From Candidatus Saccharimonadota bacterium (GTDB taxonomy: Bacteria > Patescibacteriota > Saccharimonadia > Saccharimonadales > Saccharimonadaceae): a DNA stretch of 64,000 bases. Both the position numbers and the translations under genes were made by a program. The notes under the pieces are model-generated. The model made no database searches. It had not been told where the DNA came from and was given only the letters and a program-made list of their open reading frames with translations. The stretch lies in NCBI GenBank assembly GCA_017430725.1, contig JAFRMK010000007.1, forward strand, positions 22,929-86,928, given 5' to 3'. Numbering within the stretch: position 1 is the stretch's first letter; each line of letters opens with the position of its first letter. Below are positions 47,401 to 55,351 of the stretch, one piece after another.

Positions 47401-47409
47401 TGCTATACT
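47401..47409 (+). promoter_or_regulatory. Extended -10 (TGcTATACT) ahead of the signal-peptidase operon
   Basis: The sequence is cattTGCTATACTaaaaccaaAAGGAGtc. Confidence 0.45.
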
Positions 47410-47428
47410 AAAACCAAAAGGAGTCATT

Positions 47429-47959
47429 ATTAAAACGCTAAAAACCATCGCCGACATCATCTTCTGGGTCATCGTTTCAACCGAAATCATTCTACTCGCC
47501 CTGTTTTTTGCGCCCCGTCTCTTCAATGGCGACTGCTATGTCGTCTCCAGTGGCAGCATGGAGCCAAAATACCCCATCGGTTCACTCGTCTACATTGAAA
47601 AAGCCGCCCCCGAGACTATTCAAGTCGGCGACGTCATCTCCTTTTATCTCTCCGACAACATCGTGGCTACCCACGAAGTGTTCGCTATTAACGACACCGA
47701 GCATCAGTTCCGCACGCGCGGCATCAACAATGTCGATTCCGACGGCAACATCCTAGTCGATGCTACGCCCGTCCCCTTCAGTAGCTACATCGGTAAAGCC
47801 GTTTTCGACATCCCCCTCCTCGGCTACGTCTATAGCGCCATCAAACACCATCTCATCATTTATTTTGCTATTGCTTTTCTCATCACTTTTATGCTTAAAT
47901 TAATATCAGTAAAGGTTAAGCATAATTGTGTGGAGGAAACAACAAATGCAAAAGAATAA
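47429..47959 (+). CDS. SipW-type (S26B, archaeal/ER-like) signal peptidase I, probably with a non-ATG start
   Basis: The track ORF starts at ATG 47558, but the frame is open from 47381. Upstream of that ATG it encodes a TM anchor (IADIIFWVIVSTEIILLALFF) and the catalytic box VVSSGSMEP. The second box is IVATHEV. The SD AAGGAG at 47418..47423 is followed by in-frame ATT codons at 47426 and 47429. Confidence 0.75.
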   Translation: MKTLKTIADIIFWVIVSTEIILLALFFAPRLFNGDCYVVSSGSMEPKYPIGSLVYIEKAAPETIQVGDVISFYLSDNIVATHEVFAINDTEHQFRTRGINNVDSDGNILVDATPVPFSSYIGKAVFDIPLLGYVYSAIKHHLIIYFAIAFLITFMLKLISVKVKHNCVEETTNAKE

Positions 47960-48623
47960 AGATTTTTTGAAGAAAACCTTGCCCGTTTTCTTGTTCGCCC
48001 TTTTGGCGCTCGGCGTCATCGGCGGCACCGTCGCTTGGTTAACCGCAACCGATAACAAAGTTAACAGCTTCTCGGTCGGCTCATTCTCGATCCCGACTAC
48101 CAAGCCATCTGACCCAACCCAAACCATTTCACCAGCCCTGACCGGCAACCTCTATGAGGAAAACTGGGACACAAGCTCTAATGCTGACCATAAACTGCTC
48201 CCAGGCAAAACGTTCGACAAAGACCCCGCCGTTGGTCTTGGTACAGATAGTGAAGAAGCTGTGGTTTACATCTGCGTCGCAAACTCTAACAGCAACAAAG
48301 TCTATTTCTCAATTGACAGTAACTGGTCTCCAGTAACCAACTACGCTACCGCTGGTTCTGCTAACGGCACCTACACCAAAGGTCTGTTCAAATACAATAC
48401 CAATCTTGGCCCAACAACAACTAGTGATGCTTGGACCGAGCCACTATTCTCTACCGTCGTAGTCGCCGATGATGCTGCTAGCACCGACTTTATCCAGCCA
48501 TACGACATCACGGTCTATAGCTACATCCACCAAGCCAAGGACGGCAATACGGCAATTCCGGCTGCCGATATCGAATCTTCAGCCGAGACGGCCCTGGCTG
48601 CCTACTGCCCACAAAACTCATAG
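47946..48623 (+). CDS. TasA/BsaA-like exported subunit 1 with a SipW-cognate type N-terminus
   Basis: The sequence starts MQKNKDFLKKTLPVFLFALLALGVIGGTVAWLTATDNKVNSFSVGSFSI. Compare B. subtilis TasA ...GGGTWAAFNDIKSKDATFASGTL. The SD GGAGGA precedes the ATG at 47946, and the gene overlaps the peptidase gene by 14 nt. Confidence 0.7.
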   Translation: MQKNKDFLKKTLPVFLFALLALGVIGGTVAWLTATDNKVNSFSVGSFSIPTTKPSDPTQTISPALTGNLYEENWDTSSNADHKLLPGKTFDKDPAVGLGTDSEEAVVYICVANSNSNKVYFSIDSNWSPVTNYATAGSANGTYTKGLFKYNTNLGPTTTSDAWTEPLFSTVVVADDAASTDFIQPYDITVYSYIHQAKDGNTAIPAADIESSAETALAAYCPQNS

Positions 48624-54138: not shown

Positions 54139-54692
54139 TGAAAACTTTCTTCCGCAACCACAAACAACTACTCATCCCCGGCATTCTGTTATTGTTCGGT
54201 TTCGTCGCTGGCACCATCGCTTGGTTGACCACCCGTGCCAACCTCACCAACGCATTTGAGCCAGGCGAAGTCTCCGTCACCGTCACCGAAGCCTTTGATG
54301 ACTACATCAAGTCAAATGTCGCCGTCGAAAACACCGGCACCGTCCCCACCTACATTCGCGCCACCATCGTTGCCTCTTTCATCGACGACACGAACGGTCG
54401 CATAACGGGCGAAGAACCCGTTGTGGGCCGCGACTATACTATCACCTTCTCTAATTCAGCAAACTGGATACGTGGTTCTGACGGCTATTACTATTACGCT
54501 CAGCCCGTTTCTCCAAACGCCAGCACCGATGTCCTAATCAATCGAGCAGAGCAACTCATCGAATATTCCGGCCGCAGTCTTCATATCCAAATCGCCTCAC
54601 AGGGCATACAGGCCACCCCAACCACCGCCGTTACTGATGCCTGGGATGTCACCGTAAACGCAAACGGAACCATCAATCCGCCACAGGAGTAA
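54138..54692 (+). CDS. TasA/BsaA-like exported subunit 3
   Basis: The sequence starts MKTFFRNHKQLLIPGILLLFGFVAGTIAWLTTRANLTNAFEPGEVSVTVTE. Later motifs are VAVENTGTVPTYIRATI and HIQIASQGIQATP. Its ATG overlaps the upstream stop (TAATG). Confidence 0.7.
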   Translation: MKTFFRNHKQLLIPGILLLFGFVAGTIAWLTTRANLTNAFEPGEVSVTVTEAFDDYIKSNVAVENTGTVPTYIRATIVASFIDDTNGRITGEEPVVGRDYTITFSNSANWIRGSDGYYYYAQPVSPNASTDVLINRAEQLIEYSGRSLHIQIASQGIQATPTTAVTDAWDVTVNANGTINPPQE

Positions 54693-54694
54693 AC

Positions 54695-55351
54695 ATGAAA
54701 AAACTACCATATCTTATCGTCTCCATCATCGCCGCCATCGCTCTCATATTCTCCAGCTCAAACCTCAGCCGTGCGCTCGGTGGCGAAACGCTAACTTACA
54801 ACGGCGCCAGCCGCACCTTCACCTATAGCGGAATAGAGCAGCGCGACTGTTTCGACGAATTCAAAGACCTCATTCCCGGCGACTCACGCCGCCAAAGCAT
54901 CACAGTAGGCGCCACTCAACTCCAACACCCCGCCACCATGTTCCTGCGCCTCGACAATTTCACCACCCACACCGAAATCTACCAATACATCAATCTCGTC
55001 GTCACCAAAAACTCTGAAGTAATTTTTGACAGCGCCTCAGATCCCAACCAAAGCCTCATCGAACTCCACCATTTCACTAGCGATGAATCTTTCGACCTCA
55101 CCGTCAGCATCACCGTACCGGTCGAGGTTGGCAACGAAATATCAGACCTCACGCGCGACCTCCAATGGACTTTCCTCATCGAAGAAGAAACCCCCACCGA
55201 ACCAAGCGACGAATCCGACAACACCGACCGCCTCGTCCCCCTGCCACGCACATTCGACAACAGCAATCTCTACTTCAATATCACGCTTTTCGTGATTTCT
55301 TTGATTCTACTAATCTTCTCGCTCATTCGCTTGTTCAAAAAACTTACTTAA
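54695..55351 (+). CDS. Exported beta-rich subunit with a C-terminal 'LPRTFD', TM helix and KK anchor
   Basis: The signal peptide is MKKLPYLIVSIIAAIALIFSSSNLSRALG. The mid region is ...LIPGDSRRQSITVGATQ...LQWTFLIEE. The C-terminus is VPLPRTFDNSNLYFNITLFVISLILLIFSLIRLFKKLT. Confidence 0.65.
   Translation: MKKLPYLIVSIIAAIALIFSSSNLSRALGGETLTYNGASRTFTYSGIEQRDCFDEFKDLIPGDSRRQSITVGATQLQHPATMFLRLDNFTTHTEIYQYINLVVTKNSEVIFDSASDPNQSLIELHHFTSDESFDLTVSITVPVEVGNEISDLTRDLQWTFLIEEETPTEPSDESDNTDRLVPLPRTFDNSNLYFNITLFVISLILLIFSLIRLFKKLT

Follow-up and report, generated by a model that had tools for sequence, protein, structure and literature searches.

A SipW-type signal peptidase, TasA/BsaA-like subunits and a giant adhesin in one Saccharibacterial operon: a probable heteropolymeric surface fibre of a type common in gut Bacillota

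The six-gene operon and its signal peptidase

A stretch of 64,000 nucleotides from contig JAFRMK010000007.1 (hereafter the window) carries an operon that encodes, in this order, a signal peptidase, two small secreted subunits (A and B), a giant adhesin (G), a third small subunit (C) and an anchored protein (D). The six open reading frames (ORFs) are tightly packed on the + strand between positions 47426 and 55351 (Table 1). An earlier note on this DNA had described six co-directional genes with junctions of -14, +19, +9, -1 and +2 nt, and reading of the ORFs gives the same values, the first of which presumes that gene A starts at the ATG at 47946. C is translationally coupled to G through its ATGA overlap, and at the 3' end of the operon D overlaps a convergent gene by 8 nt. 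The proteins are identical to the NCBI entries MBR0482844-54, encoded on a 133-kb contig and labelled Candidatus Saccharibacteria bacterium, a label on which the taxonomic assignment here rests, and the source samples appear to belong to a ruminant gastrointestinal metagenome series (XIEF21 prefix; the nearest relatives are goat-gut RGIG metagenome-assembled genomes, MAGs). Comparisons were made across 86 loci, of which 79 come from gut Bacillota, six (L001-L006) are close to identical with the window locus, and one, L086, is from a related Saccharibacterium.

The operon had been placed behind a single extended -10 box. Such a box can be read in the 51-nt gap between the amidinotransferase and peptidase genes, 5' of the AAAGGAG Shine-Dalgarno sequence, but it was not listed by a generic sigma-70 promoter scan, whose sites were no more numerous than in shuffled sequence; the generic promoter and terminator scan as a whole returned nothing over the shuffled background.

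Table 1. Features of the operon (window positions; G, giant adhesin; HMM, hidden Markov model; AF2, AlphaFold2)
Feature	Position	Strand	Basis or remark
Putative extended -10 box TTGCTATACT (TG-n-TATACT)	47400-47409	+	Read directly in the sequence
Shine-Dalgarno AAAGGAG	47417-47423	+	Within the 51-nt gap 3' of the amidinotransferase gene
SipW/archaeal-ER-type signal peptidase I, ~177 aa	47426..47959 (or from 47429)	+	TIGR02228, 78 bits
Subunit A, 225 aa, TasA/camelysin-like	47946..48623	+	TIGR04088, 23.2 bits
Predicted mature N-terminus of A, WLTATDNKVNSF, after SipW-type signal ending GGTVA	48036-48071	+	
Subunit B, 192 aa, BsaA-like paralogue	48643..49221	+	TIGR04090, E = 7.8e-5, below cut-off
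Candidate donor segment of B, AIMRSTKTDNII, after signal ending AGAVYA	48730-48765	+	
Giant adhesin G, 1635 aa	49231..54138	+	Ordinary signal peptide; sub-threshold Pfam matches, F-x-G-W repeats
SpaA/prealbumin-like C-terminal domain of G, ~aa 1522-1618, containing GQYIVTEESAWSWRY	53794..54084	+	HMM, E = 4.9e-19
C-terminal tail of G, WLDAASFNDNQFLGVNP, candidate donor strand	54085..54135	+	W1, L2, N10, F12 register
Subunit C, 184 aa, BsaA-like	54138..54692	+	TIGR04090, E = 1.1e-7; ATGA overlap with G
Candidate donor strand of C, WLTTRANLTNAF, after signal ending AGTIA	54222-54257	+	
Anchor protein D, 218 aa	54695..55351	+	Family alignment, AF2/Foldseek, sorting-signal-like C-terminus
D motif LPRTFD	55241-55258	+	Followed by a hydrophobic helix, then RLFKK

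The peptidase consists of an N-terminal membrane helix, the S26B boxes SGSMEP (Ser44) and THEV (as ATHEV, with His83) that had been reported for it, Asp112 and a C-terminal membrane helix, and its catalytic His stands where bacterial type I signal peptidases have Lys. These residues are conserved among 56 relatives (Ser44 in 52/56, His83 and Asp112 in 56/56 each). The model for archaeal/endoplasmic reticulum (ER)-type signal peptidase I, TIGR02228, is passed well above its cut-off of 51.85 bits, in agreement with the SipW-type assignment made before, and Pfam Peptidase_S26 is matched at 26.4 against a threshold of 22.9. The Bacillus SipW equivalog NF046067 was missed, at 56.4 bits against a cut-off of 190; the protein is the same type of enzyme as Bacillus SipW and is not its orthologue.

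No ATG, GTG or TTG occurs in the peptidase frame upstream of the N-terminal membrane helix, the first canonical start codon being the Met inside SGSMEP, and the gene must therefore start at ATT 47426 or 47429, after AAAGGAG. The public gene call of 133 aa begins at that Met, so calls of this kind lose both the N-terminal membrane helix and the catalytic Ser. The same ATT arrangement is found in the two closest Bacillota versions of the gene (L007, at 3250-3400, and L008); in L086 and about 50 other relatives the start, mostly ATG, lies roughly at least 40 codons upstream of SGSM. The yield of peptidase from an ATT start is perhaps low.

Subunit families and the distribution of the gene cluster

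The three small proteins had been proposed to be TasA/BsaA-like, with SipW-type N-termini, shared C-terminal strands and, in two of them, like endings, all of which are present in the sequence. Profiles built from alignments of the fetched loci were compared using hhalign, and the probabilities obtained among the paralogues were 99.9% for A-B, 99.7% for A-C, 99.9% for B-C and 96.6% for B-D. Against TasA, the sequence of which was checked against PDB entry 8AUR, the values were 95% (95.2%) for B, 89% for A, 70% for D and 37% for C, with mostly the N-terminal 75-80 columns covered. A, B and C are homologous to each other and are concluded to be divergent subunits of the TasA/BsaA superfamily, and in this the earlier proposal stands.

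Searches with curated models, as the earlier note had suggested, succeeded in part. The SipW-type signal model TIGR04088 is passed by A (cut-off 19 bits) and is matched by 31 of 45 members of the A family; it gave no match for B, C or D, and B and C share the G-G-T-x-A / A-x-L motif by alignment. The BsaA family model TIGR04090 (curated cut-off 60 bits) scores C at 31.9 bits and B at 22.5 bits, touches A in the signal region only (E = 0.09) and does not match D, yet all 85 of the 85 C-family representatives tested match it at E <= 1e-3, the best at 1e-16. B and C of the window are divergent relatives of TIGR04090, not members by the NCBI threshold. A similar pattern holds for PF12389 (Peptidase_M73; TasA/CalY), which found none of A, B, C or D at E <= 1 and 29 of 45 A-type relatives at E <= 0.01 (best 2e-8).

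TasA is cleaved at GGGTWA/A, and the invariant Ala that closes the G-G-T-x-A motif in the A, B and C families aligns with this site. The predicted mature N-terminus that follows has the form [W/Y/F]1-[L/F]2-T3-x4-[V/A]8-x-N10-[T/V]11-[F/I]12, in which Asn10 is kept in 81/81 A, 65/71 B and 80/84 C sequences; TasA has Ala at position 10. In BsaA, which polymerises by donor-strand exchange (Kivimaki et al., preprint; PMC11580942), the N-terminal strand bearing V33, N35 and F37 enters the next monomer, and an N35-K74 isopeptide bond forms with the help of E56 (PMC11580942). The V-x-N-x-F form of the subunits matches the BsaA pattern V33-x-N35-x-F37 given there (PMC11580942).

Columns for an Asn-Glu-Lys triad are homologous across the three families in the family alignment, and N-E-K occupies them in 75/81 A, 58/71 B and 67/84 C sequences. 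The window triads read N-K-K in A, N-E-R in B and N-E-K in C, the last being complete (Asn38-Glu51-Lys58). A retains its Lys, in a KDP motif, and has Lys instead of the family Glu. Within the sub-clade formed by the window, L086, L007, L008 and L050, the A triad is N-D-K in the other four loci, and all five have Arg for the acceptor Lys of B. With A lacking the aligned Glu and B the Lys, much of the covalent locking may have been lost here; if such a lock does operate in this operon, C would be the acceptor able to make the bond. One variant of A was also seen in L003, another metagenome assembly of the same strain, in which T-to-G at codon 120 (window 48305) turns TAT into TAG and splits the gene; the change may be either an error of sequencing or a knock-out variant that occurs naturally.

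Across the loci the order of genes is peptidase, A (1-5 copies), B (1-2 copies), large ORF, C and D, and this recurring order was found in most of the 79 gut Bacillota loci, so that the genes are indeed co-conserved in relatives as had been anticipated. C is present in 86/86 loci, D in 75/86, B in 67/86, A in 59/86 and the peptidase in 58/86, all of these counts being lower bounds with many contigs incomplete. B, C and D are usually single-copy per operon, and the large ORF, mostly of 750-2,550 aa, runs up to the start of C in nearly all loci. When one genome per species was scanned, 214 relatives of C were returned; the best 80 of the 214 come almost all from gut Oscillospiraceae, Lachnospiraceae, Ruminococcaceae, Erysipelotrichaceae and similar groups, and other carriers from the candidate phyla radiation (CPR) could be among the remaining 134. 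Carriers available in culture include Solibaculum intestinale CLA-JM-H44 and Hespellia stercorisuis DSM 15480. An exhaustive search with the C profile gave 14,260 cluster representatives at E <= 1e-3, including 1,257 at E <= 1e-30. Three contigs (L008, L071 and L072) lie in MAGs labelled Muribaculaceae, Bacteroidaceae and Alloprevotella; these Bacteroidota-labelled carriers are probably mis-binned, because L008 is a near twin of the Bacilli locus L007.

In L086, on a contig of 245 kb, the operon occupies the same site, amid the same HIT, amidinotransferase, YhgE-like, MMPL, Cna_B and Mur-ligase genes. Identity to the window is 45-82% per protein, with A the most diverged (45-48%) and the other five at 55-82%, and the ratio of nonsynonymous to synonymous divergence (dN/dS) is 0.12-0.30 for all six genes; on both grounds the operon has been inherited and is under purifying selection in this clade. 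The closest whole-operon homologue is L007, from a Bacilli MAG of goat jejunum, in which each of the six proteins is 33-48% identical to its window counterpart, G over its full length. L007 lies in a setting of 30% GC with unrelated flanks. The GC content of the operon is that of its host in both the window and L007, and in the window so is its GC skew. These data are read as an old horizontal transfer of the whole cassette, the direction of which, given the distribution of the family, was most probably from Bacillota to Saccharibacteria.

The giant adhesin and the anchor protein

G is made up of an N-terminal region that is weakly GLUG-like, repeat modules and a conserved C-terminal module. 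It had been described as a GLUG/B-repeat adhesin. At least six F-x-G-W motifs, like those of Listeria-Bacteroides/InlB B-repeats, uphold the repeat part of this description, but the Pfam matches to Flg_new, Flg_new_2 and Glug all fall below threshold, and a PDB sequence search with G found no relative. The ordinary signal peptides claimed for G and D were confirmed. Over its full length G has a homologue in L007 (47.7% identity). Its divergence between the two Saccharibacteria is uneven: the 5' 2.8 kb of the gene (window 49231-52000, L086 5085-7365) is 89% identical in DNA sequence, flanking genes being at ~74-76%, and synonymous divergence (dS) between the window and L086 is 0.64 for the whole of G and 1.15-2.45 for its neighbours. 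This low divergence suggests that the adhesin was recently recombined or exchanged, or that it is under an unusual constraint.

In other loci, the large proteins encoded at this place in the operon have unrelated heads, among them von Willebrand factor A (vWA) domains with GBS104-like tip-pilin Ig domains, BNR sialidase-like domains, MucBP domains and Listeria-Bacteroides repeats. Nearly all share a C-terminal SpaA/prealbumin-like domain of ~110 aa (..G-x-Y-T-V-T-E..W-S-W-R-Y..F-x-N-T..), in a region that PF17802 (SpaA) also matches in the relatives. An HMM made from the C-termini of 59 large proteins of other loci, with G orthologues left out, matched G and no other ORF in the window. From their domain content (vWA, GBS104-like Ig and SpaA), the large proteins of the relatives look like pilus-tip adhesins.

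After the ~110-aa domain come a tail, W-L-[D/N]-G-x4-[V/A]-x-N-x-F, and 0-12 more residues; in G the tail reads WLDAASFNDNQF. Its register is that of the mature N-termini of the subunits, with an aromatic residue at position 1, Leu at 2, V/A at 8, Asn at 10 and an aromatic residue at 12. The minimal motif occurs in 50/68 tails, compared with ~0.03 expected per 45-residue stretch, and in 0/43 D N-termini; the pattern was defined after being seen and the tails are mutually homologous, so these counts are not independent. A position-specific scoring matrix (PSSM) derived from 228 mature N-termini placed its best window in the tail for just 11 of 68 proteins, with the tail of G outside the top five of that protein. 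As the full matrix did not pick the tails, the likeness between tail and N-terminus is confined to positions 1, 2, 8, 10 and 12.

Presence of the tail motif was also set against the acceptor Lys of the adjacent C. Both were found in 50 cases, the motif without the Lys in 0, the Lys without the motif in 9 and neither in 5 (naive Fisher p = 2.6e-4), and there was no correlation of the motif with C's own Asn (p = 0.22) or with the Lys of B (p = 1.0). Of the five cases without the Lys, two seem to be slips of the alignment by one residue and two come from close relatives, which leaves about two independent co-losses; for this reason the correlation lends weak support. The shared register suggests that the adhesin tail may be a donor strand placed at the C-terminus. 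A more specific version, in which the tail is a C-terminal copy of the donor strand that plugs into the groove of the co-translated C and is locked there by a spontaneous Asn-Lys isopeptide bond, is offered tentatively and is less likely than not.

D has an ordinary signal peptide, a body of predicted TasA-like fold and an IPGD motif, and, as had been stated, is the only one of the six proteins to end in a hydrophobic helix and a basic tail. Its family is characterised by an ordinary signal peptide, the conserved N-terminal segment V-T-Y-x-G-x-A-x-x-F-I-F, an M-P-G-D motif and no Lys at the acceptor column. When an AF2 model of D was compared with the PDB using Foldseek, the top five matches included the TasA fibre (8AUR, E = 8.3e-4, TM-score ~0.33) and an archaeal bundling pilus (7UEG, E = 1.5e-3). 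On this modelled structure D is concluded to have the TasA fold, while differing from the subunits in its signal peptide and in being anchored. A homologue search with the single D sequence gave two relatives, and a profile search gave at least 1,373 members.

In 52 of 69 D relatives the C-terminus consists of a TG-type sorting signal with a membrane helix and a basic tail behind it. The signal is often PPxTG or SPxTG, the kind associated with sortase B of Clostridioides difficile. A further 14 relatives end differently. In nine loci (L015, L016, L021, L028, L053, L065, L067, L075 and L081) the D-type proteins are 400-500 aa long and end in a conserved domain (..EATNSHDY..W..L..), with no TG sorting signal or membrane helix; this domain might provide another means of binding the wall. 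Thr186, the Thr within the sorting signal, is invariant in the D family, and the LPRTF of the window has Phe in place of the Gly of LPXTG. LPRTFD is found in D of both the window and L086, and related endings are present on an unrelated protein: a 1212-aa Cna_B surface protein encoded 4 kb downstream (C-terminus at 59041-59170, - strand) has NPDTFD, a membrane helix and RRRS, and its L086 counterpart (1389 aa) ends in TPNTYD. PxT[F/Y]D followed by a helix and basic tail may be a lineage-specific variant of the LPXTG sorting signal, which hints that the signal of D has been retuned to the enzyme used by this Saccharibacterium. No TLxTC-type sortase was found in the 64-kb window, where the sole match to the motif is a PfkB kinase. 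The suggestion that the fibre would be sortase-independent is doubtful as regards anchoring, given the TG-type signals of the relatives and the recurrence of the LPRTFD ending as NPDTFD in the same genome.

Proposed assembly, rival explanations and related systems

On balance, the locus is probably a horizontally acquired, functional operon for a SipW-dependent, heteropolymeric surface fibre of the TasA/BsaA type, and one case of a six-component cluster that is very common in gut Bacillota. By analogy with TasA processing, the peptidase would cleave A, B and C after the invariant Ala of G-G-T-x-A and thereby expose an N-terminal strand, [W/Y]-[L/F]-T-x4-[V/A]-x-N-x-[F/I], that could insert into the open beta-sandwich of the next subunit, so that a fibre would grow by donor-strand exchange. 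As in BsaA, the strand may be locked by a spontaneous Asn-Lys isopeptide bond in subunits that have both Glu and Lys, here C only. A is the likely shaft, since relatives carry multiple copies of it and none of the other five genes differs as much between the two Saccharibacteria. B and C would serve as single-copy adaptors. D, with its TasA-like body, Sec signal and sorting-signal-like C-terminus, would hold the base of the fibre at the envelope, and G would be displayed distally, probably coupled to C through its SpaA-like domain and tail. D-B-A(n)-C-G is one plausible order of subunits. In an episymbiotic Saccharibacterium, the likely use of such a fibre would be attachment to the host bacterium or to gut surfaces.

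Several observations weigh against this account. B and C fall short of the TIGR04090 cut-off, and none of A, B, C and D matches Pfam individually (no credible hit for A and D, none for B and C). The AF2 model of D is of moderate confidence only (predicted local distance difference test, pLDDT, 68.5), and a Foldseek search with the full-length model of C returned no TasA in its top 50. Only C keeps a full triad, the window A being without the aligned Glu and the window B without the Lys. The equivalence of the triad to N35-E56-K74 of BsaA is by analogy of the V-x-N-x-F motif and not by direct alignment, and the distance from N to E is 13 here as against 21 in BsaA. Moreover, C. perfringens releases BsaC in free form, and no linkage of its BsaB to BsaA was found (PMC11580942).

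This last point, together with the description of BsaA and TasA as matrix proteins and the failure of the PSSM to single out the tail of G, would also suit a loose biofilm-matrix scaffold, in which A, B and C form matrix fibres, G is secreted free as an adhesin- or enzyme-like protein and D is a minor nucleator or anchor. We consider such a scaffold unlikely. It leaves unaccounted for the almost invariant, translationally coupled module of large protein, C and D, the common C-terminal domain and tail on large proteins with unrelated heads, the resemblance of those heads to pilus-tip adhesins, and the way in which the tail motif tracks the acceptor Lys of C.

The structural searches with C raise a second alternative. 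The AF2 model of C (pLDDT 87) comprises a signal helix, disordered residues 34-46 and a beta-sandwich, and its best Foldseek matches were chaperone-usher pilins, at E > 1e-3, and weak Ig-like matches; a PDB sequence search with the C-family profile gave nothing meaningful. The signal helix of the full-length model probably degrades the Foldseek search. Taken at face value, these chaperone-usher and Ig-like matches in place of TasA, the single-copy state of B, C and D, and the use of membrane-anchored chaperones with a C-terminal helix by the Pam pili of Saccharibacteria (bioRxiv 10.64898/2026.03.03.709456) would allow the small proteins to be an apparatus for export, folding and wall attachment of G, with chaperone-like Ig folds that hand G to D as the PapD-like chaperones of CPR Pam pili might. 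However, the donor-strand motif of BsaA and, by motif analogy, its triad recur in A, B and C and are hallmarks of self-polymerising subunits, the BsaA model is matched by every C representative tested, A-type genes have a copy number (1-5) like that of shaft pilins, and D matches the TasA fibre and an archaeal bundling pilus, so that a dedicated apparatus for G is quite improbable. A decaying relic of the transfer, no longer working in the Saccharibacterium, is very improbable indeed: the peptidase without a canonical start codon, the missing triad Glu of A and Lys of B, the Phe in the LPXTG-type motif of D and the stop codon in A of one metagenome variant could all be signs of decay, but the six ORFs are intact, dN/dS is low in the comparison with L086, where the operon has stayed in place, the operon has fully taken on the GC content and GC skew of its host genome, the ATT start is common to L007 and L008 and stands behind a strong ribosome-binding site, and the presence of PxT[F/Y]D on a second surface protein suggests adaptation rather than decay.

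Among characterised systems, the window operon extends the type represented by sipW-bsaA-bsaB-bsaC of Clostridium perfringens (PMC7395162; PMC11580942). Both have a SipW-type peptidase followed by several TasA-related subunits with SipW signals and a large adhesin-like protein, and in both the V-x-N-x-F donor-strand motif and, by motif analogy, an Asn-Glu-Lys triad are found. BsaC is a large vWA protein (PMC11580942), as are the large proteins of most Bacillota relatives of the window operon, and the LPXTG-bearing BsaB paralogue, which lies beside a sortase gene in most C. perfringens strains (PMC11580942), parallels D. The window operon differs in its six components of fixed order, its three subunit families and a separate anchor family with an ordinary signal peptide; its G is of the GLUG/B-repeat type, not vWA, and has the conserved SpaA-like domain and tail, its proteins lie below the TIGR04090 cut-off, only one subunit of three has the whole triad, and the host is a Saccharibacterium.

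Similarities to tapA-sipW-tasA of Bacillus subtilis (PDB 8AUR) are the predicted SipW-dependent processing, with G-G-T-x-A of the window subunits aligned to the TasA site, the predicted jelly-roll/Ig-like sandwich, the proposed donor-strand exchange, which has been demonstrated for TasA, and a separate accessory protein that would tie the fibre to the cell as TapA (both anchor and nucleator) does. TasA, in contrast, has Ala where the window subunits hold Asn10 and forms no isopeptide bond, a giant adhesin is missing from the tasA operon, TapA is a SipW substrate in its own right and is unrelated to the sorting-signal anchor of D, and no window protein reaches the PF12389 threshold. Sortase-assembled pili of Gram-positive bacteria (SpaA, RrgA, GBS104) resemble the cluster in their modular tip adhesin (vWA and CnaB/SpaA in the relatives), shaft and base with a sorting signal, and in having Lys-based covalent links between subunits, which are only putative in the window operon. 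They differ in that the window has neither a pilin-specific sortase nor LPXTG on shaft or tip proteins; its subunits would have the TasA fold and be released by a SipW-type peptidase, and any link would be a spontaneous Asn-Lys isopeptide.

Pam pili, described in Saccharimonadia, are filaments in which Ig-like subunits are joined by donor-strand exchange; a tip subunit and a membrane anchor have been proposed for them, and they are thought to mediate host contact (Troman et al. 2026, bioRxiv 10.64898/2026.03.03.709456). They are reported to be exclusive to CPR bacteria and are encoded, with PapD-like membrane chaperones and ordinary signal peptides, in an operon beside ATP synthase genes (bioRxiv 10.64898/2026.03.03.709456). 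Membership of the window operon in this system was considered and rejected, as there is a SipW-type peptidase and no chaperone-like gene among the six and the families are overwhelmingly from Bacillota; the distinction from Pam is made by description and not by sequence.

The earlier note had put the locus forward as a candidate new system. That claim does not hold for the architecture, which is widespread in gut Bacillota and known in outline: TasA/BsaA genes have been reported often to share an operon with multiple paralogues and with genes for signal peptidases, sortases, LPXTG proteins and SpaA domains, "suggesting ... heteropolymers" (PMC11580942). A literature search found no description of the specific six-part architecture, and none of a SipW or TasA system in Saccharibacteria, in accord with the view that no such locus had been described for CPR bacteria.

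So far, TasA/BsaA fibres have been known chiefly from two model organisms, as homopolymeric scaffolds of the biofilm. With an anchor, several classes of subunit and an adhesin head that can be swapped, the six-component operons of gut Clostridia and Bacilli resemble complete pili. They are apparently uncharacterised, and the gut microbiota could have in them a major adhesion system that has been overlooked. The value of the Saccharibacterial copy lies less in itself than in the large family of apparently complete TasA-type gut pili that it exposes. To our knowledge, attachment by CPR bacteria has so far been linked only to type IV pili and CPR-specific Pam pili, and the presence, adaptation and upkeep of the operon in Saccharibacteria indicate that entire machines for attachment can be acquired by episymbiotic CPR bacteria from neighbours to which they are not related. 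The Asn-Glu-Lys triad and the adhesin tail provide testable hypotheses for sortase-free covalent assembly. If the tail does act as a donor strand, the cluster would encode a fully modular, covalently linked pilus, with anchor, shaft, adaptor and exchangeable head, built without a pilin sortase, and a clade of ruminant Saccharibacteria would have captured such a pilus for attachment.

A few further features of the window were recorded. A YhgE/Pip-like protein of 530 aa and an MMPL transporter (55344-58999, - strand) converge on the operon; these genes are host context and not part of the cassette, because they are kept beside the operon in L086 and not in L007. A second giant surface protein, of 1761 aa (24447-29732, - strand), has Flg_new, Flg_new_2, VWA and DUF11 domains, and a 1309-aa ORF (32391-36320, - strand) has no Pfam match whatsoever; both are without the W-L...N-x-F tail. 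The GC skew is strongly negative across the window (1-64000), from -0.21 to -0.375 in every 2-kb window whatever the strand of the genes, an unusually large replication-strand asymmetry.

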